From an uncultured Gammaproteobacteria bacterium (GTDB taxonomy: Bacteria; Patescibacteriota; Microgenomatia; UBA8517): a stretch of DNA of 64,000 nucleotides. The position numbers and the translations under genes are program-made. Below the pieces are notes generated by a model that did not search any database, was not told where the DNA came from, and saw nothing but the letters and a program-made list of their open reading frames with translations. Below, piece after piece: positions 5,945-64,000 of this stretch; within the stretch, counting starts at the first letter, position 1, and the number at the start of each line of letters is the position of its first letter. The stretch lies in NCBI GenBank assembly GCA_964600575.1, contig CAZRJH010000004.1:6711-70710 (forward strand), in the 5' to 3' direction.

Positions 5945-6010
5945 AATACAAGTACTTACAAGAAAGTAACTCTTCCGTTTTTTCCGAACAGTTTAGTTAA
6001 ACAAAAAATC

Positions 6011-8411: not shown

Positions 8412-9503
8412 ATGGATGACACATTCGAAATATTTATAGCGTTGTGGGAAGACATTAAAGAGTTCTTTTATGAACTTGTTAAATATGTTTTCAAAAGTCT
8501 TCATATTAGTTTTTTAAGATTCGAAGAAAAGAAGGGGATATTTGTAACTGCACTTTATAGACAGCGGGGAAAACTTTCGCGAAGGTTAACTCATTCGGGA
8601 ATGGCGGCTATTACAGCACTTGGTGTTGTTATGGCACCAATGATTGCACAGGAATTTCCCGGTAGAAGTGTTAATCCCTGGGAAATAACTTCTGCACCCG
8701 TAGTTTTATCTGCATCAACAGATGACCCAGGAATTGATACACAAATATCTAGTAAAGTAAGGGATAGTATCATAGATTATATTGTTCAGGATGGAGACAC
8801 GATAAAATCCATTGCCAAAAAATTTGATATTTCCGAGGCTACCGTAAAATGGCAAAACGGATTAACCAGTGACAAAATAAAAGTCGGGCAAACAATAAAA
8901 ATCCTTCCCGTTACCGGCATTGCTCATAAAGTTTCTAAAGGAGATACCGTTTACTCTATCGCCAAAAGATATACCTCCGACTCTCAGGCAATAGTAGATT
9001 TTCCTTTTAATGCTTTTTCTAACGATGAAACATTTGAGTTGGCAGTTGGACAGACGGTAATTGTTCCTGACGGCGAAATGCCGACCCAAGCATCTGCGCC
9101 CAGAATCAGGCAAATTACTCCTGATGCTGGAACTGTTGTTGCCTCCGGTCAGTTTGTGTGGCCAACTCAGGGAACGATCACACAAAGGTTTGCCTGGTAC
9201 CATCCGGGATTGGATATTGCTAACCCCTCCGGCCCTGGAGTGGTAGCAGCGGACTCCGGTAAGGTTATTTATGCAGGTTGGGATTCAACCGGATACGGAA
9301 ACATGGTTCTTATTGATCATGGCAACGGATATAAAACCAGGTACGGACACATGAGCCAGATATTTGTGGTTAACGGCCAGAGCGTTGGTAGAGGTTCTGC
9401 AGTAGGAAGGATGGGAAGTACAGGAAGATCTACGGGAACCCACTTACATTTTGAGATTTACCTCAATGCGGGAAGGCTAAGTCCGCTTAACTTTCTAAAG
9501 TAA
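8412..9503 (+). CDS. LysM-domain M23 family metallopeptidase (peptidoglycan hydrolase)
   Basis: N-terminal TM segment, two LysM repeats (YIVQDGDTIKSIAKKF..., HKVSKGDTVYSIAKRY...) and a C-terminal M23 domain with the HxxxD and THLHFEI motifs. Confidence 0.85.
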   Translation: MDDTFEIFIALWEDIKEFFYELVKYVFKSLHISFLRFEEKKGIFVTALYRQRGKLSRRLTHSGMAAITALGVVMAPMIAQEFPGRSVNPWEITSAPVVLSASTDDPGIDTQISSKVRDSIIDYIVQDGDTIKSIAKKFDISEATVKWQNGLTSDKIKVGQTIKILPVTGIAHKVSKGDTVYSIAKRYTSDSQAIVDFPFNAFSNDETFELAVGQTVIVPDGEMPTQASAPRIRQITPDAGTVVASGQFVWPTQGTITQRFAWYHPGLDIANPSGPGVVAADSGKVIYAGWDSTGYGNMVLIDHGNGYKTRYGHMSQIFVVNGQSVGRGSAVGRMGSTGRSTGTHLHFEIYLNAGRLSPLNFLK

Positions 9504-11202: not shown

Positions 11203-11302
11203 ATAGGGAATAGGGATTAGGTTTTAGGGAATAGAGGATAGAGTACAGTGTATAGGTTGTGGTTTTCGAACTAACACCTAAACGCTAATCCCTATACCCT
11301 AT
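11203..11302. repeat. Imperfect inverted repeat: ATAGGGAATAGGGATTAG ... CTAATCCCTATACCCTAT (18 nt arms, 1 mismatch, about 64-nt spacer), TAGGG-rich
   Basis: Arms at 11203-11220 and 11285-11302. The right arm overlaps the stop codon of the Fic-like gene. Confidence 0.55.
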
Positions 11303-35615: not shown

Positions 35616-37478
35616 ATGACCCGCCCAAAGCTATTTTCACTTTTTGTTGTATTAGGTGCCTTGTTCTTTTTTAATACAAAAGCCGCTTTTGCAATGGCTT
35701 GTGACATTGTTCCCGCAACTGCAACTTTAACTGTAGGACAGAGTGGCACTGCAACTGTCAGCATATCCAATGTAGGTGACGAAATAATTACCTATGCCCG
35801 GTTTATTAATCCGGATTCGGCTTATATGACTTTTACATCCGGCTCTTCAACTGGATTTTCTGCGAGTACGGATGGGCAAACAATCACTTTTTCTGGCGGT
35901 AGCGTCTTGCCTTCGGCAGGAGCAAGTTTTGCCGTTACCGTAACACCTCTGGCTGCCACAAGCGAAGAGTTGCAAATAGACGGATTTGTGTCGGCCGACG
36001 GTGGGGATTATACACAGTGTTATTCCAGTAGCGGTATAACCATTGTAGAACCTAGTGCAACAACTGCTCCTGCGGCAACGCCTACAACAATTACTGTTAC
36101 CAATACCGTTACAACGGTTACTACAACCACAAATACGGTTACGAAAGTTCTTAAAGACGAAACTCCTCCCTCTGTAAAAATACAAACCGAAATCAAAAAA
36201 ATATACGAGGAAGCCCCTTTGATTAAAGCGGTTGCTACAGACGGTAGCGGGATTTCCAAAATTGAATATTCAAACGATGCTGGCGCCAACTGGATACCCG
36301 TGGATATAGAAGACAATATAGGAAACAAAACAGTTACTTTTGGTTTTACTTCTGATATTACTGAAGACGGTGATTATAACCTAAAAATAAGAGCGACAGA
36401 TACTTCCGGAAACAAAACACTCTCTAAAGAGATAAAATTTACAATCGACAGACTCCCGCCTCGTACCGGTCCAATTTTAATAATGACCGGCCCGACAATT
36501 ATTTATCCCGATTCAAGCGGAATAACCAGACTGTTGGCGGGTGTGGATTATAAATTTATAGTGTCGGCCGCGGGCGGGCCCAACAAAATATCCATATTTT
36601 GTAACGATAAGTCGGTTGATTTTACTAAAAATTCTGACTCCGGATTTTGGTATTCTATGGGTAAATTCGATGAGGGTTTGGAATGCACAGCAAAACTAAA
36701 AGCCGAAGACGGAGCGGGCAATGTTCAAGAAGTAGAAAAAGGAAACATAAAAGTGAGCCCTTTGGGTAAATTTGAAAACGGAACAATCACGGTATATTGG
36801 TACGACGATTTTTTGAACAAGTTTATTAAATGGGACGGGGAAGCGTTTGGCCAGGAAAACCCGATAAAAACCGGGAAAAGTGGCGGTTACGGATTTGTCT
36901 TGCCTGCAGGTGGTAAGTACTATTTGGAGGCAAAATCTTTTGGCAAAAAGACGGGTATTTCGAATATTATAACCACAACCGAGACCGTATATATAAACGA
37001 TAATTGGACACTTTCACCCTTTTACACTTTTTGGCAAAAAAATGAGATAAAAAACTTGTCTCCTAAAGCAATCGGTGGCGGTGCTTGGCGACAAACGAAT
37101 ACAGATTTGCCTAATGTGGTTTTATCCGGATTTTCTACCTTGGAAGCTAGGGGAAAATTCACCGTCTTTGGCCTAGTAAGTTCCTGGCATCCACTTGCAA
37201 ACGACTACCTAAAAGTTGCGGATGAGCTTTCAAAAAACAAGGTTACTTTTATTCCCGTTTTGATCCAAGAAAAAGACGCGGCGGCAGGTTTTTTAAAAAG
37301 ACGCGGCGGATATAACCTTGATATTCTAGCCGATCCCGACGGAGAGCTTTTGAAAGATATTTCGGTTAACGGTTTGCCTACAACTTGGATAGTCAATAGA
37401 TTTGGAAAAATAATCCAAGAAAAAACAGGTAGCATTGACGCTCAGGAAATATTAAAAATGTTAACTTCCACGGAATAG
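35616..37478 (+). CDS. Exported protein with Thr-rich linker, Ig-like middle and C-terminal thioredoxin/redoxin-like domain lacking CxxC
   Basis: Signal peptide, a TTAPAATPTTITVTNTVTTVTTTTNTVT linker, and a C-terminal TlpA/ResA-like fold with SSWHPLAN in place of WCxxC. Confidence 0.45.
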   Translation: MTRPKLFSLFVVLGALFFFNTKAAFAMACDIVPATATLTVGQSGTATVSISNVGDEIITYARFINPDSAYMTFTSGSSTGFSASTDGQTITFSGGSVLPSAGASFAVTVTPLAATSEELQIDGFVSADGGDYTQCYSSSGITIVEPSATTAPAATPTTITVTNTVTTVTTTTNTVTKVLKDETPPSVKIQTEIKKIYEEAPLIKAVATDGSGISKIEYSNDAGANWIPVDIEDNIGNKTVTFGFTSDITEDGDYNLKIRATDTSGNKTLSKEIKFTIDRLPPRTGPILIMTGPTIIYPDSSGITRLLAGVDYKFIVSAAGGPNKISIFCNDKSVDFTKNSDSGFWYSMGKFDEGLECTAKLKAEDGAGNVQEVEKGNIKVSPLGKFENGTITVYWYDDFLNKFIKWDGEAFGQENPIKTGKSGGYGFVLPAGGKYYLEAKSFGKKTGISNIITTTETVYINDNWTLSPFYTFWQKNEIKNLSPKAIGGGAWRQTNTDLPNVVLSGFSTLEARGKFTVFGLVSSWHPLANDYLKVADELSKNKVTFIPVLIQEKDAAAGFLKRRGGYNLDILADPDGELLKDISVNGLPTTWIVNRFGKIIQEKTGSIDAQEILKMLTSTE

Positions 37479-48745: not shown

Positions 48746-49174
48746 TTACTTAAAGAGTCCTGAAACTATAACAAAATTTACAAATATAGCAATGTTTATA
48801 AATATCGCTATAAGGCACCATGAACAAAATGTTTTGATAACTTTGGCCTGAAGATAAAGTAAATAAAAACTAAATAAGGTAGCAGAAGAAACAGCAACAA
48901 GCATTATCTGGCTCAAGATTCTGGTTGGTCCAAAATTTTGCACAAGAATAGAAAAAACAAATACGGAGATATAATAGGCTATACCGTAAATTTCGTTTTT
49001 TATACCAAAGTGGTTTCCATACTTTGAACCTACCACTTTTGAACAATCCTCCCCCATAAAACAAAACATCTTTTTACCTTCCTTAACCTCCCTTTTATAT
49101 TGCCAATGAAGAAAATATGCATTTAGAAGGCCCAGAAATGACAGTATCCAAAGTGTGAACATGTTTGTAAACAT
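48746..49174 (-). CDS. Vitamin K epoxide reductase (VKOR) family / DsbB-like thiol oxidoreductase
   Basis: TM1 (LSFLGLLNAYFLHW), loop cysteine pair CFMGEDC, SKYGNHFGIKNEIYGIAYY, and the CSWC (CxxC) active site in the last TM. Confidence 0.65.
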   Translation of the reverse strand: MFTNMFTLWILSFLGLLNAYFLHWQYKREVKEGKKMFCFMGEDCSKVVGSKYGNHFGIKNEIYGIAYYISVFVFSILVQNFGPTRILSQIMLVAVSSATLFSFYLLYLQAKVIKTFCSWCLIAIFINIAIFVNFVIVSGLFK

Positions 49175-51460: not shown

Positions 51461-51922
51461 ATGGTGTCTTTAATAATGAAATACATTAAATATGTTTTGT
51501 TTTTTTTGGCCTCTTTTGTTATTTCTTTCTTAGTTCTAAACTCTTTGCCGGTTAGTTATTTGAATGTAAAGGATCAAGCAAAGGGAACGACCATTGAGGT
51601 TGGTTTTGTTAGGTTATCAAAATTATCGTTCTTGGTAGTTCAAACAATCGACCCTGTAAGCGGTTTAACCGACAAAGGTGGATTTTTAAATAATCCCAGT
51701 CCATTGCCCCCGGGAATATATAGGAATGTAAATCTTTCGTTAACAAACGTAAGCGGCGAAATCCCGGACAAAGTGGCCGTGACTTTATACGAAGATACAA
51801 ATAAGAACGACTCATTCGACGGTTACTACGACCACGAAGACGGGGTGATTATAGAGGAAGACAAACCAATTTTTAATCTAGTTAACAAAAAGATAATTAG
51901 AAAAGTAATTCTTTTAAAATGA
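51461..51922 (+). CDS. Hypothetical exported protein (153 aa)
   Basis: N-terminal hydrophobic anchor. Confidence 0.45.
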   Translation: MVSLIMKYIKYVLFFLASFVISFLVLNSLPVSYLNVKDQAKGTTIEVGFVRLSKLSFLVVQTIDPVSGLTDKGGFLNNPSPLPPGIYRNVNLSLTNVSGEIPDKVAVTLYEDTNKNDSFDGYYDHEDGVIIEEDKPIFNLVNKKIIRKVILLK

Positions 51923-51923
51923 A

Positions 51924-53153
51924 ATGAATATTTATAAAAAGGTAAATAAAAGAATTGCCATAATGTCGTTTATAATTGCGGTTCCCGTTCTCATTTATTT
52001 ATCGGGACATTTCAACAAAAATAACTCATTAGATAAGTCATTTTTGAGGTCAAAAGTTGCTTCAGTGTTAAAAAAATGTAACAAGGGGACCAACACCCTT
52101 AATTCGATAGATCAAAGATGCGTATATAAAGAGTTTCATAAGTTTGTTAACAAAAAGAATGTTTCCTTAGTTGTCGCCTCTTTAATGGATATTTTTTCCA
52201 AAGAAGATAACTCCAGAAATTTGGGTACCAATAATTGTCATATTCCTGCTCACATTGCGGGTGAGATTGCTTATCAGGACGGTGCGAATTTAGATGAGCT
52301 TTGGCAAAAGTGTTCCAATAACTGTACCTTTGGTTGTTTGCACGGCGGTTTTCAGGGAATGTTTAAAGAAAAGGGGCCGGCACTTTTGGATAATCTGGAA
52401 ACTGCCTGTAAAGTTTTAAATAATCCGGATGACGCCGATCTTAGAAGTTGTTGGCACATCATAGGCCATGGTTTGGCTGAATACTTTGGGTCCAATCTTG
52501 ATGCGGCGGTTAACAAATGCCTAAGTCTCCCTAACGAAAAACAGCAACGCCACTGCATAATGGGTGTTAGGATGGAGTTTATTGTTGCCTCTGTTGATAA
52601 CACTAGCCCCATGCCGCCACTAAAAGGTTTTGAGTATTTGGATTTTTGTAAAAAATTTCCATCAAAGTTTGTTGAGGACTGTTATGCCGAAGCAGCTTAT
52701 TATCAGATTCGTATAACAGACGATGTTAATCAGATGGTTGATGTTTGCAAGCTGGTTCCTAACATTGGCGATTCAATAATACGCTGCGTAACGGGGTCGG
52801 GGTCCGTATTCTTTTTTACGAATAAAGCCAATGCCCAGGTAATTCACGATTTTTGCGCCAGATACGAAAACAAGAAATATGAGAATGAATGTGCAATAGG
52901 ATCCGCAGACTTGTCGTCTTCGGAATGGGACCATCTTCAAACTGGTGCCAATATTTGTCTTTTAACAACCCCGGACTTTGTAGGTGAGTGTTTGGCTTTC
53001 TATGGCGGTAGAGTCCAATTCTACAATGGTTTAGCAAAGCGTAAAGAAATTTGTTCCGAGTTATCCGCTAAAGACGAAAAAAGCTGTATGGGTAGTCCCA
53101 AGATGGATAGGGAATACCTAACTCCGGTTACATTCACTCTTCAGGAAAGATAA
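51924..53153 (+). CDS. Exported Cys/His-rich repeat protein, paralogue 1 of 8 (no N-terminal His-rich beta domain)
   Basis: Signal anchor plus ordered motifs CHIPAHIAGEIA, CWHIIGHGLAEYFG, CxxGxx.... 22 Cys. Confidence 0.6.
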   Translation: MNIYKKVNKRIAIMSFIIAVPVLIYLSGHFNKNNSLDKSFLRSKVASVLKKCNKGTNTLNSIDQRCVYKEFHKFVNKKNVSLVVASLMDIFSKEDNSRNLGTNNCHIPAHIAGEIAYQDGANLDELWQKCSNNCTFGCLHGGFQGMFKEKGPALLDNLETACKVLNNPDDADLRSCWHIIGHGLAEYFGSNLDAAVNKCLSLPNEKQQRHCIMGVRMEFIVASVDNTSPMPPLKGFEYLDFCKKFPSKFVEDCYAEAAYYQIRITDDVNQMVDVCKLVPNIGDSIIRCVTGSGSVFFFTNKANAQVIHDFCARYENKKYENECAIGSADLSSSEWDHLQTGANICLLTTPDFVGECLAFYGGRVQFYNGLAKRKEICSELSAKDEKSCMGSPKMDREYLTPVTFTLQER

Positions 53154-53328: not shown

Positions 53329-54435
53329 TTATATTTTTTCGTTATGTACCAAGACACCGCCTGCAAAGTAAGCGTGGTAAGGGCCGGGGAGAGACAAGTT
53401 GTAAACAGTGTTGGTTTCGTTGACATTCTCGATAGATTCGATAGCGTAGGCACTTCCGTCGGAATTCATTAGAGTGTCTCCGATAACGAGAGTGTCGGCG
53501 TGTACCCAAGCGTTTTTACTCGGAGACCAGACAAGATGGTTGCCCGTAACTTTTAGACTATCGTTTACGAGTAAGTAGCCACTAACATTTTCGTGTACCA
53601 AAAGTCTACTAACCACTTGGGGGAAAGTTCTTTTGTTTGCTAAATCATAAGATAGAACTATGTCTCCAGTTTTGATGTCTTCAATAGACTTTGTAGAACC
53701 GTCGGCAAGTGTCACTTGAGTTCCTGCTAAGAAACAACTGGAATAGTAAAGTTGGGAATATGAGTAGGCGGCATAGCTGGATTGACCGTAACCGTAGTAC
53801 GTGCCCTGTGAATAGCTGTAGTAAATACTTTGACCGTAACCGTAGTAGGCTGACTGAGCGTATGCGTAGTAAGTTGATTGTGAGTAAGAGTAACAAGTAT
53901 TTGTTAAAGAGAAAGACGATGCACCACAGTCTACAGTCGAGTAAGAATCAAAAAGACCAAGCCTTCTGTAGCCTGATGCCGTAGCTGTTCTGAAGTTGGT
54001 TAGAGTAAAGTTGTCTGCCCATCCATCTGCGTCCGTATCTTGCAAATATATTGGGCTTCCGGATTTGATAGAGCCTCCCGCCTGAACAGACAAACTCCCT
54101 GTACCGATGGTTAAAGAACCAAATGCCAGTGTTCCACCGTTATTTATTGTTATGTTTCCACCTGTCGTAAGTGATAATTGTGCAGAATTAGTGGTTGAAG
54201 CGTCTGTTGTTCCATTATCCACACCTTCGACATTGCTTGCAGCGATAGAACAAGTGGTTGCCCAATTAAGCACATTCTTGGTAGTGGCAGTCATGGAAGA
54301 ATAAAAGTTACAAGCTGCTTTAGCGGAAGAGGGTGTTAAAAGTAGAACCAAAAAAGCGAATACTACTGCGCTTAATGATTTTGTATATGTTTTTGAGGTT
54401 AACATTATTTTTTGCTGCTTAGGACCTTGGAGCAA
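53329..54435 (-). CDS. Exported Tyr/Ser-rich repeat protein ending in a Hint (Hedgehog/intein-like, BIL-type) domain
   Basis: Signal peptide, a (YY/YG/QS) low-complexity tract, then CFLAGTQVTLADGSTKSIEDIKTGDIVLS ... VLVHNEKI, with the N-terminal Cys and C-terminal His-Asn signatures of a Hint domain. Confidence 0.6.
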   Translation of the reverse strand: MLQGPKQQKIMLTSKTYTKSLSAVVFAFLVLLLTPSSAKAACNFYSSMTATTKNVLNWATTCSIAASNVEGVDNGTTDASTTNSAQLSLTTGGNITINNGGTLAFGSLTIGTGSLSVQAGGSIKSGSPIYLQDTDADGWADNFTLTNFRTATASGYRRLGLFDSYSTVDCGASSFSLTNTCYSYSQSTYYAYAQSAYYGYGQSIYYSYSQGTYYGYGQSSYAAYSYSQLYYSSCFLAGTQVTLADGSTKSIEDIKTGDIVLSYDLANKRTFPQVVSRLLVHENVSGYLLVNDSLKVTGNHLVWSPSKNAWVHADTLVIGDTLMNSDGSAYAIESIENVNETNTVYNLSLPGPYHAYFAGGVLVHNEKI

Positions 54436-55000
54436 CCGTAACCGTTGATGTTTTACCGTTTGATGACTTTGCCGTTAGAGTTAAGATGTATTTGTAGTCT
54501 ACAGTGTCGTTTAGACTGGCACTGCCGGACCAAACCCCGTCTGCTGCCGATCCCGATTTAAGACTAAGTTCAATGTTAACCGATCCACGATCCGTAGTTA
54601 AAACTCCGGTCAAAGTAGACACTCCTGCCGTGTCGTTGGCTTTGACTGTTAAGTTAAGTGTCTGTCCTTTTTTGACATCCAAGGGATCAAAAACAACTTG
54701 GGTAACAGTAGGGCCTTCGTGTTGACCCATGCCCACCTGGTAAGTTCCCTTAACGCCATCATCCGGTCTTAAGGGGATTGGTGTAGGAGTTGGTGTTGCT
54801 TTTGGCTTTGCTGTTGCCGATTTTGTTATATCCGTGACTTTAATGTCTTTTGGTAAATCCGCTGTTTGATTTGTAGTGTCTACGGAAGCTGGCGGGGTAA
54901 TGCTTTTCCAAACAAAATAAAAAGAGGCACCAAGAACGACAGCAATAAAGAGTAAAATTACTACAATCGAAACACCGCTATTGTCAGATTTTCTTTTCAC
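54419..55000 (-). CDS. Exported protein with Thr/Pro linker and Ig-like beta domain, hypothetical
   Basis: N-terminal TM or signal anchor, a KPKATPTPTPIP linker and a beta-rich C-terminal domain. Confidence 0.45.
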   Translation of the reverse strand: MKRKSDNSGVSIVVILLFIAVVLGASFYFVWKSITPPASVDTTNQTADLPKDIKVTDITKSATAKPKATPTPTPIPLRPDDGVKGTYQVGMGQHEGPTVTQVVFDPLDVKKGQTLNLTVKANDTAGVSTLTGVLTTDRGSVNIELSLKSGSAADGVWSGSASLNDTVDYKYILTLTAKSSNGKTSTVTVAPRS

Positions 55001-55090: not shown

Positions 55091-56353
55091 ATGTGTGGAA
55101 GTTTTTTAGGAAGTGATAAAGTATTATATTCGAAAGTACGAATGCATAAACAATTTATTTACAACTTTTTGTTCGTAATTTTTGCCTCGGTTTTAATATT
55201 TGGAGGATTGGTTCAAACTTTTGGCGGTAGCTTTTACCCGGAATTGTCTTATCTAAATAAAAAAAATCTTCAGTTTTCGGATTTACAAAAATTTTTTAAA
55301 CAAATGGCAGACAAAAAAGGAGCATTGTATGCCTTCAGTGCTTTAAAAATTGCAAAACTACCTCCAAATACAGATGTTCACCTTTTGGGCCATACGATTG
55401 GGGACATTCTTTACAAACAAAAAGGTCTCGACGGGATAAAGTACTGTACCCAGGATTTTAGGAACTCTTGCTCTCACTCAATAGTTGTAGGTCTTTTTGT
55501 AGAAAGAGGATCGTCTGCACTGGATGATATTGCAGAAGTTTGCCGTACCGCACCGGGTGGGACTGGGGCATATGGTATGTGTTTCCATGGTTTAGGGCAC
55601 GGAATACTCGCCTTTGCCGGGTATAATATGGAAAAGGCTGTAGAACTTTGCAGAAAGGCGGGCACAGAACAAACAGGTTATATAGAAACTGCAGAGTGTG
55701 TTGGGGGTGTCGTTATGGAGATGGTTGCTGGTGTTCATGACAAATCTGCTTGGGAGAAGGAGCGCGGAAAATACCTTTTGTCGACCAAACCTCTATCTCC
55801 TTGTACAGAGCCTTTTGTACCTGCGGTTGCCAAGCCAAACTGCTTCCTTTATATAACCCCTCATCTTTGGGAGGCTGCCGGTGGAGATTTGGGTAATCCT
55901 ACGGATGCTGTCTTTTCAAAATCCTTTGCATACTGTGAACAACTCAAAGGCGAAAACGCGGTTTATAAAGAACTATGTTATGGCGGTTTTGGAAAAGAGT
56001 TTGTCGGTCTTGCGCAGTCGCGTGACATTAGAAATATCGGGGCAATGGGAGAAGCGGAGCTTGGCCTTGTTTATAAATGGTGTAATCTGGCGGGTAATAT
56101 GTTTGGTATAAAGAGTTGTGTTAAGCAAGCAATAAACTCACTATATTGGGGCGGGGAAAACGAGTTGGGTGCCACAATAAAATTTTGTGGTATTGTGACG
56201 GATGAAGAGATCAAAGAGTCCTGCTTTAATCATGTTATTGGTTCTTTTAGGTTTTATCAAAGGTCGAACCCTAAGAAACTAGAACAAAGTTGTAAAAATC
56301 TTCCGGAACCATACAACTTGAGATGTGTTGATCCGGGTTTTATTGAAAAATGA
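55091..56353 (+). CDS. Exported Cys/His-rich repeat protein, paralogue 2 of 8
   Basis: Motifs MCFHGLGHGILAFAG and ECVGGVVMEMVAG. The likely true start is the internal Met at about 55142 (MHKQFIYNFLF...). Confidence 0.6.
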   Translation: MCGSFLGSDKVLYSKVRMHKQFIYNFLFVIFASVLIFGGLVQTFGGSFYPELSYLNKKNLQFSDLQKFFKQMADKKGALYAFSALKIAKLPPNTDVHLLGHTIGDILYKQKGLDGIKYCTQDFRNSCSHSIVVGLFVERGSSALDDIAEVCRTAPGGTGAYGMCFHGLGHGILAFAGYNMEKAVELCRKAGTEQTGYIETAECVGGVVMEMVAGVHDKSAWEKERGKYLLSTKPLSPCTEPFVPAVAKPNCFLYITPHLWEAAGGDLGNPTDAVFSKSFAYCEQLKGENAVYKELCYGGFGKEFVGLAQSRDIRNIGAMGEAELGLVYKWCNLAGNMFGIKSCVKQAINSLYWGGENELGATIKFCGIVTDEEIKESCFNHVIGSFRFYQRSNPKKLEQSCKNLPEPYNLRCVDPGFIEK

Positions 56354-57519
56354 AGATTAAAACGGTTAGCGGATTGTTGCTCCTGACATTTTTTTATTTT
56401 GCCTTTTGGAGCAAGCCATTGACGGGAAATATTGATCGTAGATTACAACAATGCAAAAAAAGTGACCAAATCTGTTACAAGAATATGATTGTAGAGGCCT
56501 TTGATAAATATGGTCTCAGCAGGTCTTTAGATTTGGTGGATAAAATTTACTCTAGAGATTCAACGTTTGGTTCTACTTGTCACGATATTGGCCATCTTTT
56601 GGGGTCCAAAACATTTAAACTTTTTAAACAAGGAAAAGATTTTGAGATTACGTCAAAGGTAGCTTTCTGCTCCTACGGCTTTTATCACGGATTTATGGAA
56701 ATCTTAGCATCGGAAGGAGATGTCAAAAGGGCCAGAGATTTTTGTAAATATGTGGACAGCCGAGTTTCCAAAGAGACACCCGACGCCACTTTGCAATGCT
56801 TTCATGGGATAGGGCATGGTTGGGTGAATATTCACGGTGATAAAGCTTTGGTTGGTAACGATTTAGGAATAGCTAAAAAAGGCTTAAGCTTATGTCGGGA
56901 GGTTGCATCCACCGATTCGGAATTAAGCCGTTGTGCAACGGGAGTTTTCAACGGACTGTCGGTTTTTTACGCAAACGAAGAATATGGTTTAAAAATCAAC
57001 AAAAGCGACCCTATGTGGATTTGTAAAAAAGTTGAAAAAGAATTTCAAGACCCTTGTTATGTGAGTATGAATGCTATTTTATTTTCAATAACCGGCGGCG
57101 ATTTTAGAAGCTCTGCAAAATATATCGAATCGATAGATGACGATGTTGTAGCATCACACGCCATGATAAATTTGTCATTGCCCTTTAGTCTTTCGGAGAT
57201 CAACAATAACGACCATTCTAAAAGCGTGGCCGTTTGTAAAAGTCTTCAGGATCGTTTGATTATCCCTTGTTTTCAAGGGTTTGCATTTGCCTTTATGGAA
57301 CACGGAGAACCCGGCAAAGAATATGTTAGAGCGGTTGAGTTTTGTAAGGTAAACGGTTTGACGGATAAAGAAGAAAAAGGATGTCTGTCCTATATCTATT
57401 CTTATATGGCCCAATGGTATCCAAAGGAAAAGGCTTATTCTATATGCCGGTCAGAAAACGGGTATGAACAATTGTGTAAAGAAAAATTGGAAGAAGGAAT
57501 TAATGGACTCCCTAAATGA
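56350..57519 (+). CDS. Exported Cys/His-rich repeat protein, paralogue 3 of 8
   Basis: Motifs CHDIGHLLG, FCSYGFYHGFM, CFHGIGHGWV and CATGVFNGLSVFY. Start overlaps the upstream stop by 4 nt. Confidence 0.65.
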   Translation: MKIKTVSGLLLLTFFYFAFWSKPLTGNIDRRLQQCKKSDQICYKNMIVEAFDKYGLSRSLDLVDKIYSRDSTFGSTCHDIGHLLGSKTFKLFKQGKDFEITSKVAFCSYGFYHGFMEILASEGDVKRARDFCKYVDSRVSKETPDATLQCFHGIGHGWVNIHGDKALVGNDLGIAKKGLSLCREVASTDSELSRCATGVFNGLSVFYANEEYGLKINKSDPMWICKKVEKEFQDPCYVSMNAILFSITGGDFRSSAKYIESIDDDVVASHAMINLSLPFSLSEINNNDHSKSVAVCKSLQDRLIIPCFQGFAFAFMEHGEPGKEYVRAVEFCKVNGLTDKEEKGCLSYIYSYMAQWYPKEKAYSICRSENGYEQLCKEKLEEGINGLPK

Positions 57520-58676
57520 AAAAAATAATGGTCGTTCTCAGTTTAATAATTTTATTAGGGTATTTTGCTGTATCAAAAGAATGGCCAAAGGTTAATCTTT
57601 CCTTGGACAAAATATCCAAAGCAATCATCTACAAATGTGCAGACGCTAATACTAAAAGCGTTTGTTACGAAGAAGAGATTCCGAAATTAACAAATGTCTT
57701 AACAATGGAACAGACATTTGATGTTACTGGAGTTATTCAATCAAAAGTTGCCGATTTTCCTTACTGTCATGTTTTGGGTCATAAGTTGGCGAGCATTGAG
57801 ACAAAAAAGGATCCCTCTCAATGGAAAAGTGTTATGGCACGTTGCCCGGCAGGGACTTGTTCCAATGGCTGTGTTCACGGAGCATTTCAGGAAAGATACA
57901 AATACGAAGACCTTTCCAAAGCGGAGTTCGTCTTAGCTAAAAAAGACTTTGAAACAGTTTGCGAAAAAAGCGATTCGTTTAATCCCACAGGTCTTGAACA
58001 AGGCAGTTGTTATCATGCCCTTGGGCATTTGATGATGTATCTTACCAACGCAGACATAAAAGAATCGGTAATTGCCTGCGACGAAGTGGCTCTTAAAAGT
58101 GACGGAAGAGATTTTAGGAATGTTTGTTATGCCGGGGCATTTATGCAGATATATCAACCCCTAGACACAGACGATAAATCTCTTGTAAGTAAGTTTAACT
58201 TAAACTCGGAAAACTCCTGGCAATTTTGCTCAACTTTTGAAGAGTCAAAAAGAAACGCCTGCTGGGAAGAGTCCTGGCCGGTTTTTCTTCAACAAATTAG
58301 TGTCGGGCGGGGGCTATTGGATTTTTGTGGGATGCTTGGAACGGGAAGTGAAAAGTGCGTAAGAGACCTATTGTATATAATGCCGATTCAATTTAGATTT
58401 GACTACAAATCAATTTGGACTTTCTGCAAGGGCCTTACTCAAAAATACCAAGGACAGTGTTTTGCTATGACAGCCTCAAGAATTTTGGAAATCGATAAAA
58501 GAAACGGGCAAAAAACCATCGACTTTTGTATGTCTCTAGATACTACAGATAAAGATGTTTGTCTAAATCAGCTACTTACCGATTTGCGTTTTGATTTCAC
58601 TTTTGGTTCTCCGGGATACAATTCTGTTTGCGACAAATTACCGGAACCTTGGAAATCTAGATGTTTTTCAAAATGA
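57516..58676 (+). CDS. Exported Cys/His-rich repeat protein, paralogue 4 of 8
   Basis: Motifs CHVLGHKLA, CVHGAFQERY and CYHALGHLMMYL. Start overlaps the upstream stop by 4 nt. Confidence 0.65.
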   Translation: MKKIMVVLSLIILLGYFAVSKEWPKVNLSLDKISKAIIYKCADANTKSVCYEEEIPKLTNVLTMEQTFDVTGVIQSKVADFPYCHVLGHKLASIETKKDPSQWKSVMARCPAGTCSNGCVHGAFQERYKYEDLSKAEFVLAKKDFETVCEKSDSFNPTGLEQGSCYHALGHLMMYLTNADIKESVIACDEVALKSDGRDFRNVCYAGAFMQIYQPLDTDDKSLVSKFNLNSENSWQFCSTFEESKRNACWEESWPVFLQQISVGRGLLDFCGMLGTGSEKCVRDLLYIMPIQFRFDYKSIWTFCKGLTQKYQGQCFAMTASRILEIDKRNGQKTIDFCMSLDTTDKDVCLNQLLTDLRFDFTFGSPGYNSVCDKLPEPWKSRCFSK

Positions 58677-60088
58677 GTAGGCGAAACATTTTTATTTTCT
58701 TCATCACAATCTTCGTTTTAGCTTTAAATGTAAAACTCAAATACAGAGTGGAATTGAAATCTAATGGATATCAACCTTCTGAAATAACTATAAAAAAAGG
58801 AGATAGTGTTAAATTCTTTTCCGAATATTCATCTTTCTGGCCTGCATCCAACCCCCACCCAAATCATACGCAGAGTCCGGATTTTGATCCCAAAAGGGCA
58901 ACAGCAAAAGACAAAAGCTGGGATTTTACCTTTGATAAAGCCGGAGTATATACATATCACGATCATTTGAACCCTTTTTATAAAGGCAAAATCAAAGTTG
59001 TCGAAACTAATCTATTTGTTTATTTAAAAAACAAATTCGCAAATTTTACGAGAGTTAGTTTTGAAAAACACGATTCGCAATACATAAACAAAGTTTCCGT
59101 TTTGTGCAAAGGCGAAGAATGGGAGGAACGAAAAAATCTTATTGATTGTTGGAATTCATATTTTTCGGAACTTGTTAAAGACTTTGGTCCAAATGAAAGT
59201 TTACGGATACTTGATGCACTTACCACAGGAGGTTTTGTATCGTTATCTGATTGCCACAACTTTGCAGATCAGATTGGTTCAGACTCATATTGGCAGAAGG
59301 TGTCGGGTAAATCTTTTACTTTCGATGATACTTTTGGAATTTGCAGTTACGGTTTTTTCCACGGCTTTATGTTGGAAGATGTAAGCCACGGCCAAGATTT
59401 TGAAGCTTCATTCAAACTTTGTAACAAGTTGGCAAATTATGGGGAAAATATGGTTAATGAATGTTTTGTAGGGGTGGGCAACGGGTTGGCATATTATTTT
59501 TGGAATACTTTGGGCGAAGATGTGGTGTCGATAGTTGGTAAATCAAAAAGCGTCTGTGAGTCGGTGGGTAAATATAAAGATTCATGTGTTTACGGTGTAT
59601 ACGGCGGCATGGAGCACTTGTATCTTAAGATACACGGGTCCAGTTTGTCTATCGATCAGACGAACCCTTATTTTGTGTGTTCTAAGGAATTGGGTGATAA
59701 GTATTTGCCATATTGTTACGAAAAGATAGACAGGCCTCTTTTTTCCGATTTAAATTTTGATATTGTCAAGATCGCGTCTTGGATAAACAAGATTCCGAAC
59801 CAAGAAATAAGAAAAGCAGAGGCAAAAAGCATCGGAAACTTTGTCAGCCAGTTTTGGATCTATAAGGACGAAGCTGATTTTGTACTTGCCAAGAGCAAAT
59901 GTTATGAATTTAGAGGTATTCTTTATTCCAGCTGTTTGGAAGGTGTTTTTGAAGGAATTTTGTCTAATTTAAATGAGTCCGGGAGGGCGGATGAGTTTAA
60001 GTGTTTAGGCAAAAGTCTCACGAGTTCTGAGATAAATATTTGCTTATTAAAAAAGAAAGAAACTATCGAAGCTGTCAAAACGTTTTAA
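58661..60088 (+). CDS. Exported protein: N-terminal His-rich cupredoxin-like beta domain plus Cys/His-rich repeat domain, paralogue 5 of 8
   Basis: N-terminal domain KKGDSVKFFSEYSSFWPASNPHPNHT...YTYHDHLNPFYKGKIKVV, then CHNFADQIG, CSYGFFHGFM, CFVGVGNGLAYYFW and CVYGVYGGMEHLY. Confidence 0.65.
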   Translation: MFFKMSRRNIFIFFITIFVLALNVKLKYRVELKSNGYQPSEITIKKGDSVKFFSEYSSFWPASNPHPNHTQSPDFDPKRATAKDKSWDFTFDKAGVYTYHDHLNPFYKGKIKVVETNLFVYLKNKFANFTRVSFEKHDSQYINKVSVLCKGEEWEERKNLIDCWNSYFSELVKDFGPNESLRILDALTTGGFVSLSDCHNFADQIGSDSYWQKVSGKSFTFDDTFGICSYGFFHGFMLEDVSHGQDFEASFKLCNKLANYGENMVNECFVGVGNGLAYYFWNTLGEDVVSIVGKSKSVCESVGKYKDSCVYGVYGGMEHLYLKIHGSSLSIDQTNPYFVCSKELGDKYLPYCYEKIDRPLFSDLNFDIVKIASWINKIPNQEIRKAEAKSIGNFVSQFWIYKDEADFVLAKSKCYEFRGILYSSCLEGVFEGILSNLNESGRADEFKCLGKSLTSSEINICLLKKKETIEAVKTF

Positions 60089-60091
60089 ATC

Positions 60092-61516
60092 ATGGCAAAA
60101 AAAATACTAACATCTTTTTTGATTGTGTGTGCTGTTGTTTTCGCGGTAATTATTGTTTACCAACCTCGTTTAGAGGTGGTTCGAATGACTCCTTCCGGGT
60201 TTGCCCCTTCGTACTTAACAGTCATCAAAGGACAGTCTGTTAAATTTGTTTCGGATGGTGCTTTGTTTTGGCCCGCCAGCGATCCGCACCCAAATCATAC
60301 GAATTTTTCGGAATTTGACCCCAAAAGTCCGATAAAAGACGGCGATTCCTGGACATTCAAATTTAGTAAGTCCGGTTTCTTTGAATATCACAACCATTTA
60401 GAACCAAGCTCAAGGGGTGCGGTTAAGGTTATCGAGACGAACCCTGTTGACTACGCTTTAATACACATCAAAGATTTATATAATAAGTTTTTTGTAAAAC
60501 ACGATATTAAATATGCGATCTCGCTAGAAGAAATGTGCTCGAAATTAAGAGAAGATAGGGTTAAATATATAGAATGTTGGTCGGAAACCTTTACTAACAT
60601 TACTCGTGACTTTGGTGTTACGGAGGCAGTTAAGACTCTGAGTCTTGTTAATTCTTCGTCCGGAATAACATTGGGCGATTGTCACTTGATAGCAGACCAA
60701 ATAGGCACAGATGCTTATTGGCAGTTTTCTTCCGGAAAAAAATTTGAATTTACAAAAGATTTCGCCTTATGTGATTTTGGATTTTTCCATCACTTTATGT
60801 CGGAACATGTGAGTCATGGCCAAGACTTTTTGGGATCGGAGACTTTGTGTTCATCTCTCGACGAAACTCTGGTTGATCAATGTTTTTTTGGTTTAGGTAA
60901 CGGTCTGGCCTATTATTTTTGGGGGATTTATCCGACAAGTTCTGATTTAATAGTTTCTAAAGGTCTTGGGGTTTGTAAAAAACTGCAAACGAACGGCAGA
61001 ACATGTGCTTTAGGTGTATATAGCGGGATTGATCACTTGTTCGAGGGTAAACATGGGTCGGAGTTGGTGGTAGATATCAAAGATCCGTTCTCTTTTTGCA
61101 GGATGCAACCTGATCGCGATCTGGCTATATCCTGTTACGAAAGAATGATTCCTTCGATATCTCATGTTTTAGGTAAAGAATCTAGCCAAAATGCAAAAGT
61201 GCTAATTTCTTGGGTTTACAAGATGCCATATTTTGCAAGACAGGCTTCTATGAGACGATTGGGAATAATGTTATCCGAGGAAGAATCGGTAAAAGTTAAT
61301 CCGATCCCAAATAAGGCGTTAGATATTTGCAGAAACCAAGCGGGTGTATATTCGGGTGAATGTGAATGGGGGGTGTTTTATAATGTATTTCTAAATGGAG
61401 CTTCGGCAACAAGCGAATTTTACGGAAAAGATTGTGAAAGTTTTGGAAGCTTGAAGGATGAGGAAAAAACGAGATGTCAGGACGCCTATGATTCAACTGT
61501 AGATTTTAGAAAATGA
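60092..61516 (+). CDS. Exported protein: His-rich cupredoxin-like domain plus Cys/His-rich repeat domain, paralogue 6 of 8
   Basis: N-terminal domain KGQSVKFVSDGALFWPASDPHPNHT...FEYHNHLEPSSRGAVKVI, then CHLIADQIG, CDFGFFHHFM, CFFGLGNGLAYYFW and CALGVYSGIDHLF. Confidence 0.65.
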   Translation: MAKKILTSFLIVCAVVFAVIIVYQPRLEVVRMTPSGFAPSYLTVIKGQSVKFVSDGALFWPASDPHPNHTNFSEFDPKSPIKDGDSWTFKFSKSGFFEYHNHLEPSSRGAVKVIETNPVDYALIHIKDLYNKFFVKHDIKYAISLEEMCSKLREDRVKYIECWSETFTNITRDFGVTEAVKTLSLVNSSSGITLGDCHLIADQIGTDAYWQFSSGKKFEFTKDFALCDFGFFHHFMSEHVSHGQDFLGSETLCSSLDETLVDQCFFGLGNGLAYYFWGIYPTSSDLIVSKGLGVCKKLQTNGRTCALGVYSGIDHLFEGKHGSELVVDIKDPFSFCRMQPDRDLAISCYERMIPSISHVLGKESSQNAKVLISWVYKMPYFARQASMRRLGIMLSEEESVKVNPIPNKALDICRNQAGVYSGECEWGVFYNVFLNGASATSEFYGKDCESFGSLKDEEKTRCQDAYDSTVDFRK

Positions 61517-62790
61517 ATAACCGCAATAAAATTATATTAATATCAATTGCAACCCTTGGCGTCTTATTGGGGATTTTAATCACCAACTACAAAGCAGGTA
61601 GCGGAAAGGCAAAAACACATATTGTCACTTATAATTCCAAAGGTTTTAACCCCAGCACCCTAACCGTTGCTAAAGGAGATAGGATTGAGTTTAAAAACGA
61701 GACGAAAGAATTGTTTTGGCCCGCCAGCGATCCTCACCCTTTACATAGTTTATATCCGGAATTCGATCCGAAGGAGCCGGTGGATGCAGGATCTAATTGG
61801 ACGTTTAAACCTGTTAAAACCGGGGTTTGGAAATTTCACGATCACCTGTTTCCGAGCAACCGCGGAGTTTTGACTGTTCTTTCAAGTGAGAACGCCGATA
61901 TTGCAGGAAGGGTGTTAAAAAGGGACGAGATAAAGTCGTTGATAAGTAAAAAAGGTACAGAAGACGCATATAGCTATCTAAAATCTATTTATGATCCTTC
62001 CACATCTTTTGCTCATTCCACATTTCATTTATTTGGTGAATTGCTTTTTGATAAGCTTGGAACAAGAGGAATAGAGCTTTGTGATAATTTTGGGGGCTTT
62101 GGTTGTTACCATGGGCTTTTTGTAAAGGCAGTTGCCCAAAGGGGGATAGAAACAGCCGTCGAGTTAGATAGGATTTGTGTGGAAAAATTCGGCGTACAAG
62201 GTTTGGGATGCCCTCATGGTATAGGACACGGCCTGGTTGAATACTTTGGCCTTGGAAAAGTAAATGAGGCTCTTAGTGTTTGCCAAAAACTTTCTTGGAA
62301 AGGGATGTTATTTGGCTGTCAAGGCGGCGTATTTATGGAAAACAATTTTCCTACGATTTTTGACAAAGAAGGGATAGGAAATGTTCAAACAAGAGAGGCA
62401 CATGGAAATTTACTACAACCTTGTTTGGATGTTGACCCCGTCTTTCGCCCTGCTTGCTATTTTGAACAAGCTTCATGGTGGAACAACGTACTAAAGCATG
62501 ACTTTCAAAAGATTGGAAACTTTTGCAACTCACTTAAAAATCAAAATGAATACGAAAGCTGTTTGATGGGAGCTGGTAATACCGCAGCCGAAACCTCGCA
62601 TTACAACAAAGAGTCGGTTGTCGACTCCTGCAAACAAGTATATGGAACCAAATCTCAGGCGCTTTGTAGGGCAGGCGGATCCTGGGCATTTTTTGCAAAT
62701 CCGGAGAAAAGAAACGAATCTGAATCTTTGTGTACAGACTTGGGTATCTATTCTGATTTGTGTTTGTCAAAACGGGTAATTGTTAAATAG
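61513..62790 (+). CDS. Exported protein: His-rich cupredoxin-like domain plus Cys/His-rich repeat domain, paralogue 7 of 8
   Basis: N-terminal domain KGDRIEFKNETKELFWPASDPHPLHS...WKFHDHLFPSNRGVLTV, then CYHGLF, CPHGIGHGLVEYFG and CQGGVFMENNFP. Confidence 0.65.
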   Translation: MNNRNKIILISIATLGVLLGILITNYKAGSGKAKTHIVTYNSKGFNPSTLTVAKGDRIEFKNETKELFWPASDPHPLHSLYPEFDPKEPVDAGSNWTFKPVKTGVWKFHDHLFPSNRGVLTVLSSENADIAGRVLKRDEIKSLISKKGTEDAYSYLKSIYDPSTSFAHSTFHLFGELLFDKLGTRGIELCDNFGGFGCYHGLFVKAVAQRGIETAVELDRICVEKFGVQGLGCPHGIGHGLVEYFGLGKVNEALSVCQKLSWKGMLFGCQGGVFMENNFPTIFDKEGIGNVQTREAHGNLLQPCLDVDPVFRPACYFEQASWWNNVLKHDFQKIGNFCNSLKNQNEYESCLMGAGNTAAETSHYNKESVVDSCKQVYGTKSQALCRAGGSWAFFANPEKRNESESLCTDLGIYSDLCLSKRVIVK

Positions 62791-62791
62791 G

Positions 62792-64000
62792 ATGAATTCT
62801 TCTAAAAAGTTGATTTTTTTCTTCGTGTTGGTGATTCTTTTGTCGATGTTATATGTTTTTTTGGGAACAAAAAAAACAAGAAATTATGAAGTTAAATACA
62901 CGAATAGAGGCTTCATGCCTGCAAAGCTAGATTTAAAAAACGGCGATGTTGTTACTTTTGTAAACAATTCCGATTTGTACTTCTGGCCTGCAAGTGATCT
63001 TCATCCATCTCATCTTTTATATCCGGAATTTGATCCCAAAAAGGCTTTGGAAAAAGGTGAAACTTGGAAGTTTGTTTTTAGAAAAAGTGGTACTTGGGGA
63101 TTTCATGATCACTTAGACCCAACAAAAAGGGGTGAAATAAAAATAGGTGATGATTTTATAATCAAATTTTTTGTTAATTCGGTAGACTCGCTGAAAAGAG
63201 CCAAAGTTTTCCTAACTGGCAGGAAAACTTTTTTTGACGGAAAGATAAAAAGTTGTCCAAGTGGGGTGGATTTTGAAACTGGGAGAAGATGTTGGGAAGC
63301 AGCAATATCGGAAGTTAAAAGACTTTTTGGAGTTCAAGCCTCATTTGATTTTTTGAAAGAAGCAATTTCTAAAAATCCTGAAATTATGGGTACCTGCCAT
63401 TATTATTCTGAGTATATCGGGTTTTTGGTTTACGAAGACTATTTTAAAGGTGATAGCCCCAAAGTTTACGAGTCGGCGGAAATTTGCGGCTACGGTTTCT
63501 ATCATGCGTTGTTGCAGGAATGGGTTAGCCATAACAAAAACATTTCGGAGTCTAAAGACTATTGCGAAAGCTTAGAAAAAATTCCCAATCTAAATTTTAG
63601 TAAAGGAAACTGTATTCAAGGAGTTGGTATAGGCTTGACCTTTATGAATGCATCAAGCTTTTACGGGGAGGACGAAAAAATCATATCTAAGTCACTGGAA
63701 GATTGTAGTTTGGCATTCAAAGATGCCGTTTACAACAGCTTGTGTAGCGATGGTGTTTTTTCGGGACTTGCTCATTTGTATTTTGGAGACCATGGCATTT
63801 CGTTGTCAACCGACGATAATAATCCTTTTTGGGTCTGTAATAAATTTAAAGGCGACATTAAGACAAAGTGCTATTTATATAACACCGAGGTAGTTTATTA
63901 CAGATTAAACAAAGATTTTAACAGGACAGTAGATTTTATAATCAAGTCAGCGAATAGAGAGGTTATAAACAAGTCGTTGGAAAGATTGGGCACGACATTG
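62792..64000 (+). CDS. Exported protein: His-rich cupredoxin-like domain plus Cys/His-rich repeat domain, paralogue 8 of 8 (3' end outside window)
   Basis: Open frame from the ATG at 62792 to the window end (403 codons, no stop). Motifs FWPASDLHPSH...FHDHLDPTKRGEIKI, then CHYYSEYIG, CGYGFYHALL, CIQGVGIGL and CSDGVFSGLAHLY. Not in the ORF track because it lacks a stop. Confidence 0.6.
   Translation, partial: MNSSKKLIFFFVLVILLSMLYVFLGTKKTRNYEVKYTNRGFMPAKLDLKNGDVVTFVNNSDLYFWPASDLHPSHLLYPEFDPKKALEKGETWKFVFRKSGTWGFHDHLDPTKRGEIKIGDDFIIKFFVNSVDSLKRAKVFLTGRKTFFDGKIKSCPSGVDFETGRRCWEAAISEVKRLFGVQASFDFLKEAISKNPEIMGTCHYYSEYIGFLVYEDYFKGDSPKVYESAEICGYGFYHALLQEWVSHNKNISESKDYCESLEKIPNLNFSKGNCIQGVGIGLTFMNASSFYGEDEKIISKSLEDCSLAFKDAVYNSLCSDGVFSGLAHLYFGDHGISLSTDDNNPFWVCNKFKGDIKTKCYLYNTEVVYYRLNKDFNRTVDFIIKSANREVINKSLERLGTTL

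Follow-up and report, generated by a model that had tools for sequence, protein, structure and literature searches.

Can a cupredoxin that lacks the copper-ligand cysteine still hold a metal, and at which residues? This question is raised by P5 to P8, four neighbouring open reading frames (ORFs) in a 64,000-nt stretch of DNA (hereafter the window) from an uncultured, ultra-small bacterium of the candidate phyla radiation (CPR)/Patescibacteria (assembly GCA_964600575.1, contig CAZRJH010000004.1, positions 6,711–70,710). Each protein has a hydrophobic N-terminal helix, then a β-domain of ~90 amino acids (aa) and then a Cys/His-rich domain of ~300 aa. A preliminary description of this DNA had reported four paralogues in which a β-domain with two His motifs follows the anchor, and we confirmed the ORFs, the domains and the motifs. 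Our analysis suggests that the domain is a cupredoxin whose whole type-1 (T1) copper site has been erased, and that four nearly invariant His have arisen at new positions beside it, where they may bind a metal.

P5 (58661–60088, 475 aa), P6 (60092–61516, 474 aa), P7 (61513–62790, 425 aa) and P8 (ATG at 62792, the ORF continuing past the window end at 64000) are all encoded on the + strand and share one architecture: a membrane helix, the four-His cupredoxin domain and a Cys-rich helical domain. The cupredoxin domains span 58745–59011 in P5, 60170–60442 in P6, 61612–61890 in P7 and 62879–63154 in P8. A motif search of the six-frame translation returned exactly four occurrences of WPAS..HP.H in the window, one per paralogue: WPASNPHPNH in P5 (58838–58867), WPASDPHPNH in P6 (60269–60298), WPASDPHPLH in P7 (61717–61746) and WPASDLHPSH in P8 (62984–63013). 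The second motif reads YHDHLNP..KG in P5, YHNHLEP..RG in P6, FHDHLFP..RG in P7 and FHDHLDP..RG in P8, with its first seven residues at 58955–58975, 60386–60406, 61834–61854 and 63101–63121, respectively. Both motifs had been called strictly conserved. This holds for a core that is invariant in P5–P8, namely W-P-A-S, both His of HPxH, both His of HxH and the Gly, but not for the Asp (Asn in P5) and Pro (Leu in P8) of SDP, the Asp of HDH (Asn in P6) or the RG (KG in P5).

The Pfam family Cupredoxin_1 (PF13473, EfeO-N type; gathering threshold 27 bits) matched P7 at 28.5 bits, P5 at 26.2 bits and P8 at 25.1 bits, with no match in P6; it also matched 52 of 65 relatives (E ≤ 0.01). A family profile made from the four window domains and six homologues was compared to PDB sequences, where it matched amicyanin (E 6e-7 to 4e-6) and a nitrite reductase C-terminal cupredoxin domain (E 7e-9). 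P5 as a single query also matched amicyanin (E 1e-4). The AlphaFold2 model of the P7 domain, P7 being the protein chosen for modelling, was an eight-stranded sandwich (predicted local distance difference test score, pLDDT, 93.9), and a Foldseek comparison of this model to the PDB returned plastocyanin 1bxu with a template modelling (TM) score of 0.80. Other Foldseek matches were amicyanin, purple cupredoxin 5fc9, Bacillus Cupredoxin_1 structures, EfeO and nitrosocyanin, as well as FtrB when the full-length model was used. The profile match to amicyanin, the model confidence and the score to 1bxu bear out the plastocyanin/amicyanin-type layout given in the preliminary description, and the check that it had proposed, structure prediction followed by Foldseek against cupredoxins, yielded a cupredoxin β-sandwich. 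By profile match and predicted structure, the domain is a genuine cupredoxin.

CopC, PCuAC and histidine-brace copper proteins were absent from the best 50 Foldseek matches. The family has no conserved Met, and a His near the mature N-terminus (column 3) was present in only ~20% of the domains, which is not the pattern of a histidine brace or of H(M)x10Mx21HxM. In the 825-aa Levybacteria-type proteins P0186 and P0086, predicted signal-peptide cleavage (between TSA and HSE, and between IFS and HSK, respectively) leaves His as mature residue 1. This subgroup may have an extra, histidine-brace-like ligand, judging from the predicted cleavage sites.

The closest known proteins by both sequence and fold were amicyanin and plastocyanin (type-1, “Cup-III”). 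The four-His domain shares with them the strand order, amicyanin's loop length after strand 7 and the terminal xGxIxV strand. It differs in that all four ligand positions are substituted, in a long loop after strand 4 that carries HPxH and YPEFD, and in being membrane-tethered and usually fused to a helical domain. Among the alignments that set the register of the domain, that with amicyanin was the sole statistically solid one. In this register, Asp77 (numbered by domain position; Asn in P6) aligns to the amicyanin ligand Cys92, as it does to Cys507 of ascorbate oxidase, and His76 aligns to the non-ligand His91. The ligand His53 aligns to Ser39 (or Ala38), and the columns of the ligands His95 and Met98 are variable in the family, with F/A/N at one and Y/F/L at the other. 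The preliminary description had placed Asp or His at the Cys ligand position. Asp is indeed there, but the site is not a variant of type 1, because the Cys has been lost together with both His ligand positions and that of the axial Met. We also considered HDH as a type-1 site with Asp in place of Cys, as in C112D azurin, and rejected it since the partner His positions are missing.

These data bear directly on whether the domain could be a classical, plastocyanin-like blue-copper electron carrier. Database names of members are “hypothetical”, “cupredoxin domain-containing” and, for several from the Joint Genome Institute (JGI), “plastocyanin” (P0181, P0152, P0058), and published metabolic models of CPR bacteria let single-domain cupredoxins pass electrons to NirK (PMC5581439, PMC12931201). 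The domain has the fold of a blue-copper protein but neither the Cys ligand, nor the two His ligands, nor an axial Met/Gln. Because all type-1 ligand positions are absent, no type-1 site is possible, and we consider a blue-copper role extremely improbable. Any NirK-donor candidates of those two studies that belonged to the four-His family could not fill that role; “plastocyanin” labels and NirK-donor inferences in CPR bacteria need to be checked for Cys, His and Met ligands.

We then asked how well the residues of the two motifs are conserved. The set comprised 148 domains from the best 155 proteins, taken as representatives of 50%-identity clusters. In the first motif and its surroundings, conservation was 98% for W36, 97% for P37, 99% for A38, 98% for S39, 99% for H42, 99% for P43, 97% for H45, 97% for Y48, 97% for F51 and 98% for D52. 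In the second, it was 99% for H76, 94% for D77 (N in 4%), 98% for H78 and 95% for G85. The P7 equivalents are H75 for His42, H78 for His45, D85 for Asp52, H109 for His76 and H111 for His78. All four His were intact in ~375 of 387 unique domains. Across the same 387 domains, residue 77 was Asp, or Asn in ~7%, and position 40 was N, D, A, G or S; position 40 is therefore no obligatory ligand. By alignment, conservation of the motif residues is well above chance.

The rare degenerate copies drop several site residues jointly, as expected for a single functional site. This was seen as a YDYN/HDD pattern in locus L004 (GCA_034680565.1; 12786–14288), which together with L006 is syntenic with the window, and as RFWPITINNSS in the Gottesmanbacteria locus L001 (1893–3359). 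Such copies amount to natural “knock-outs” and would be useful controls. Further degenerate copies, in which at least two of H42, H45, D52 and H78 were lost jointly, lie at 11275–12789 in L004 and at 8610–10118 in L006.

Conservation of this kind can be compared to what would be expected if the domain bound no metal. A degenerate cupredoxin could serve as an immunoglobulin-like spacer or binding module of a diversifying surface family, with its His and Asp used to bind a ligand or partner or to sense pH. The family does form large arrays of divergent paralogues beside leucine-rich repeat, Hint-toxin and other surface-type genes, like adhesin or effector families, and some copies are joined to proteins rich in fibronectin type III (FN3) domains that resemble S-layer proteins (P0017). 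However, the four His, the Asp and the WPAS/YPEFD frame are near-invariant across very divergent CPR lineages, as against an overall identity of 15–36% among the full-length paralogues of the window. A near-invariant His/Asp frame amid such low identity is the pattern of a cofactor site and not of a binding surface, and we give a metal-free module little credence.

Where on the fold would the four His lie? The alignments place them at new positions beside the old site: His42 and His45 in the loop after strand 4, and His76 and His78 flanking the former Cys position at the end of strand 7. The potential site of three or four His and Asp in the preliminary description is thereby partly upheld, in that the four His are conserved, but they occupy these new positions and Asp77 is a doubtful ligand, because it is expected to point away from His76 and His78 on the strand and is Asn in some relatives. 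The invariant Asp52 appears to be the better carboxylate candidate. In multicopper oxidases (MCOs) and two-domain laccases, the His on either side of the Cys position are turned from the type-1 pocket, and the copper that they bind lies on the domain's flank. H76-D77-H78 aligns with H506-C507-H508 of ascorbate oxidase and with the HxH of laccase domains that lack a type-1 site: WHYHDHV in SLAC, FIFHDHVDT in 2zwn and MIHDHVDTH in 3g5w. In a weak alignment with 9cck, a nitrite reductase, Pro37 is matched to the T1-type His of the first domain and H76-D77-H78 to H-C-H. His42 is matched there to a His with the spacing of a type-2 (T2) ligand (+5 relative to the T1-type His, judged by comparison to canonical HNxDFH). 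By these comparisons and the covariation described next, the old type-1 level would be at about residues 35–39, and the His cluster one level lower on the flank, where nitrite reductases hold their type-2 copper and MCOs their trinuclear cluster.

Mean-field direct coupling analysis (DCA) of 358 non-redundant domains (effective number of sequences, Meff, 329) recovered the contacts of the sandwich. F35 coupled to Y7, N29 and N83, in the “northern” loops around the old copper site. The 40–53 loop was coupled to the strand 7–8 hairpin through D40–R84, L44–V86, L47–K74, H45–L79 and P53–L79. These couplings between neighbouring residues support the predicted proximity of the HPxH loop and the strand 7–8 hairpin independently of any His–His pair.

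Overall, we propose the following function. P5–P8 would be cell-surface proteins anchored by the N-terminal membrane helix, each with an amicyanin-like cupredoxin in which the type-1 site has been erased (Cys to Asp or Asn, both His and the Met positions lost). His42, His45, His76 and His78, probably with Asp52, would form a new cluster beside the old site. All ligands would come from one domain, unlike in nitrite reductases and MCOs, where a second domain or subunit adds some. The cluster would take up a single ion, with Cu(II) the most likely, in a site that is type-2-like and all-N/O (three or four His, possibly with Asp52), and the domain would act as an autonomous module for metal handling or redox at the cell surface. 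When fused, the cupredoxin module would serve the adjoining disulfide-rich, five-His helical domain in cis. On the strength of the conserved residues and of the analogy with known flank sites, we judge the case for metal binding by this cluster to be evenly balanced, and we are less confident of the identity of the metal and of its cellular role than of metal binding as such. Cys-less cupredoxins that bind Cu(II) have been described, namely FtrB (Cup-II), EfeO's N-terminal domain (Cup-I) and C112D azurin (PMC11966278).

Several observations weigh against this proposal. The alignments to laccase and nitrite reductase domains are individually non-significant (E 0.02–8). In the DCA, H45–H78 ranked fourth of all pairs and H42–H78, D52–H78 and H42–D52 were within the top 30, but the signal between the invariant His comes from a handful of degenerate sequences and reflects co-loss, not contact. 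An alternative register, itself non-significant, sets SDLHPTHTLYPEF on SETHPWHLHGHDF of ascorbate oxidase; it may put H42 and D77 in the old pocket, leaving H45, H76 and H78 as a three-His flank site. No copper-handling, iron or Ftr-like genes were found in the 64-kb window. No copper-handling genes were found beside the stand-alone copies of the domain described below, where translations were inspected and no family search was run. Anaerobic fermentation is the way of life of many CPR bacteria, and such cells have little evident use for copper chemistry.

A non-redox Zn(II) or Ni(II) site, used for capture or buffering, as a structural element or as a hydrolytic centre, would involve no copper chemistry at all. 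An HxH on a β-strand in an all-His/carboxylate site is typical of zinc enzymes such as carbonic anhydrase, and either Cu or Zn has been seen bound in crystals of a Bacillus Cupredoxin_1 protein (4hcf/4hcg). Copper enzymes are scarce in CPR genomes, and the domain offers no Met or Cys that would favour Cu(I). Against this stand the descent of the domain from copper proteins, a motif that is the same as the copper-binding HDH of laccases, and the Irving–Williams series, by which Cu(II) beats Zn(II) at such extracellular sites. We therefore consider a Zn(II) or Ni(II) site unlikely.

Known Cys-less and all-His systems offer partial parallels to the proposed Cu(II) site. Like EfeO-N (Cup-I; Pfam Cupredoxin_1) and FtrB (Cup-II), the four-His domain is an extracytoplasmic cupredoxin without the Cys ligand. 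The likeness extends in EfeO to the fusion of the cupredoxin to a helical metal-binding domain, with the difference that the fused partner in P5–P8 is another, unmatched helical domain. Foldseek matched 7wgu and 8vuk (TMt 0.77 for 8vuk, a fold-level comparison), and the Cupredoxin_1 score was borderline; neither EfeO nor FtrB gave a sequence-level match in the PDB profile and sequence searches. Cu(II) binding by FtrB is of micromolar affinity and uses Asp and His (PMC11966278). In contrast to FtrB, where Cu(II) is assigned to a conserved D118/H121 pair and Fe(II) to the ExE/E93 site and the gene belongs to an FtrABCD operon, the family has four conserved His, and in contrast to both systems it has no Ftr1/EfeU permease or DyP peroxidase context. 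The copper site of Cu,Zn-superoxide dismutase and the type-2 copper of nitrite reductase are likewise all-His sites made of an HxH on a β-strand and of His from adjacent elements of a Greek-key sandwich. The dismutase differs in fold family and nitrite reductase in quaternary structure (its site is at a trimer interface), and we draw a functional analogy only, with no claim of homology.

The T1-less domains of MCOs (SLAC domain 1; domain 2 of mgLAC 2zwn and of the Nitrosomonas MCO 3g5w) have the same aromatic-H-D-H at the end of strand 7, with Asp for Cys, a likeness that is local and non-significant on its own. The four-His protein differs in being single-domain, in lacking a T1 partner domain and in its first motif, a loop-borne HPxH instead of a strand-borne HxHG. 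MCOs need at least two domains with HxHG, HxH, HxxHxH and HCHxxxHxxxxM; here we found one cupredoxin domain with HDH and HPxH only, and no Cys. Compared to NirK, the protein is a single domain without T1 ligands and shows local similarity only, around the H-C-H and HxxxxH of 9cck. A description of a four-His cupredoxin family was not found in the literature on CPR/Patescibacteria cupredoxins or on Cys-less cupredoxins.

To what extent does the site depend on the helical domain to which it is joined? The AlphaFold2 model of full-length P7 (pLDDT 93.2; predicted TM score, pTM, 0.81) shows a transmembrane helix at residues 3–28, the cupredoxin at 35–123 and an all-helical domain at 125–420. The helical, Cys/His-rich domain is common to all eight paralogues of the window. 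It has invariant Cys pairs on adjacent helices and five near-invariant His (H168, H172, H200, H235 and H239 in P7, which keeps all five). All five were present in 85 of 93 fused copies and in 104 of 133 unfused copies. H235 and H239 are lost in P5, P6 and P8, and P5 and P6 are minority variants with two of the five left. Because P5 and P6 keep the cupredoxin His without three of the helical His, the two His sets are separable. Pfam and NCBIfam searches of the helical domain were empty, and none of 65 members had a Pfam family for it. Ten cupredoxin-less paralogues, combined into a profile, had no sequence match in the PDB, and the best 50 Foldseek PDB matches of the full P7 model were all cupredoxins, with none to the helical domain. 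By its conserved Cys and His, the helical domain is a candidate new metalloprotein domain.

These observations also bear on a reading in which the four His are only a half-site. A bi- or trinuclear copper centre would then be completed in homo- or hetero-oligomers of the paralogues or by the five-His helical domain, and the protein would be an oxidase that lacks type-1 copper; if a single cupredoxin that has flank ligands of T2/type-3 (T3) kind were paired either with another copy of itself or with that helical domain, this would amount to a new multinuclear copper centre. HDH is the exact motif of T1-less laccase domains, whose His hold an inter-domain cluster. One MCO domain contributes four His, as in ascorbate oxidase and SLAC, which equals the number in the four-His domain. 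The five near-invariant helical His, the pTM of the full-length model, which suggests a fixed arrangement of the domains, and the occurrence of the proteins in probably co-transcribed paralogue arrays would fit as well. Nevertheless, the domain often stands alone, with no helical-domain gene within 6 kb. P5 and P6 retain the cupredoxin His despite the loss of three of five helical His, cupredoxin-less paralogues keep five of five, and the first motif reads HPxH where MCOs have HxH(G). We hold an interfacial centre to be quite improbable. If it were true, the cupredoxin plus Cys/His-rich helical proteins would be an unrecognised class of CPR cell-surface copper enzymes, with a bearing on the origin of MCOs and nitrite reductases from single-domain ancestors.

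A deep hidden Markov model search returned 8844 representatives when the threshold was E ≤ 1e-3; this fell to 4390 with E ≤ 1e-10 and to 164 (50%-identity clusters) with E ≤ 1e-30. A word-indexed search that used the full-length alignment gave 691 proteins at E ≤ 1e-10, with source names that included Gottesman-, Levy-, Blackburn-, Chisholm-, Sung- and Kaiserbacteria and “Patescibacteria group”. A pattern scan in which each species was represented by one genome gave 252 confirmed matches, nearly all in CPR-type metagenome-assembled genomes (MAGs). The deep search also returned multi-repeat proteins of 700–1150 aa; these were mostly ordinary Cys-containing type-1 repeats of other organisms and were excluded from the family.

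We examined the architecture of the family in 82 loci. Among the 128 ORFs with the cupredoxin domain, 82 also carried the helical domain, in one or two fused copies, and most of the unfused ORFs were anchor-plus-domain genes within arrays of helical-domain paralogues. Fusion was also seen in ~70 of the best 155 representatives. The fusion to a Cys-rich domain had been called unusual; it is instead the commonest architecture in this CPR-wide family. In twelve loci from 12 CPR MAGs (L012, L019, L021, L024, L032, L038, L040, L049, L050, L051, L054 and L071), a stand-alone copy of 166–184 aa, around position 6000, consisted of the anchor, a low-complexity linker and the domain; its surroundings were conserved and lacked any helical-domain gene within 6 kb. 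Judged from their translations, with no family search, the adjacent genes resemble housekeeping genes (gatCAB, miaA, holB, BNR-like, frr, rseP, proS, mreB). Elsewhere the domain was duplicated in tandem, lay C-terminal to the helical domain or was attached to other domains, FN3-rich ones among them. The module appears to be autonomous, because it occurs alone with its anchor, fused at either end, duplicated or joined to other domains. In P0021 and P0142, the four-His domain is followed by a small second β-domain with a His-rich VHLHGYD or FHVHAYD.

By sequence, the novelty would be a His4 motif, new and extremely conserved, at the T2/T3-equivalent flank of a cupredoxin that is widespread in CPR bacteria. 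It would be a new conserved metal-site design, as yet a predicted one, for one of the best-studied folds, in a single domain and at the place where nitrite reductases and laccases hold their catalytic copper. The family is large, and its arrays reach at least 13 paralogues in what should be small genomes, so it probably matters to the surface biology of episymbiotic CPR bacteria. The relevance of these results is thus to copper-site evolution, CPR surface biology and annotation.

The array in the window begins upstream of P5. Four paralogues of the Cys/His-rich helical family without the β-domain precede it on the + strand: paralogue 1 at 51924–53153, and paralogues 2 to 4 at 55091–56353, 56350–57519 and 57516–58676. 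The stops and starts of P5–P8 and of the three paralogues at 55091–58676 overlap or nearly abut, so these genes are probably one operon. Synteny with L004 and L006 indicates that the array runs past the window end and has at least 13 paralogues.

Two further genes upstream of P5 encode a VKOR-family protein (48746–49174, − strand; Pfam E 3.9e-23), ~10 kb upstream, and a protein of 620 aa whose C-terminal domain is Redoxin (35616–37478, + strand), upstream of the array. Together, these proteins are likely disulfide-forming machinery, and disulfides formed by the Cys pairs of the helical domain would be consistent with their presence. A small DUF7282 protein (51461–51922, + strand) directly precedes the first paralogue of the array, and another adjoins the array in L001 (259–690, − strand). 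The DUF7282 gene may be a conserved accessory gene of the locus. A Hint/PT-HINT (pretoxin) protein (53329–54435, − strand) and a small partner ORF (54419–55000, − strand) split the array between paralogues 1 and 2, and this pair recurs in the syntenic L004 (1736–3401).

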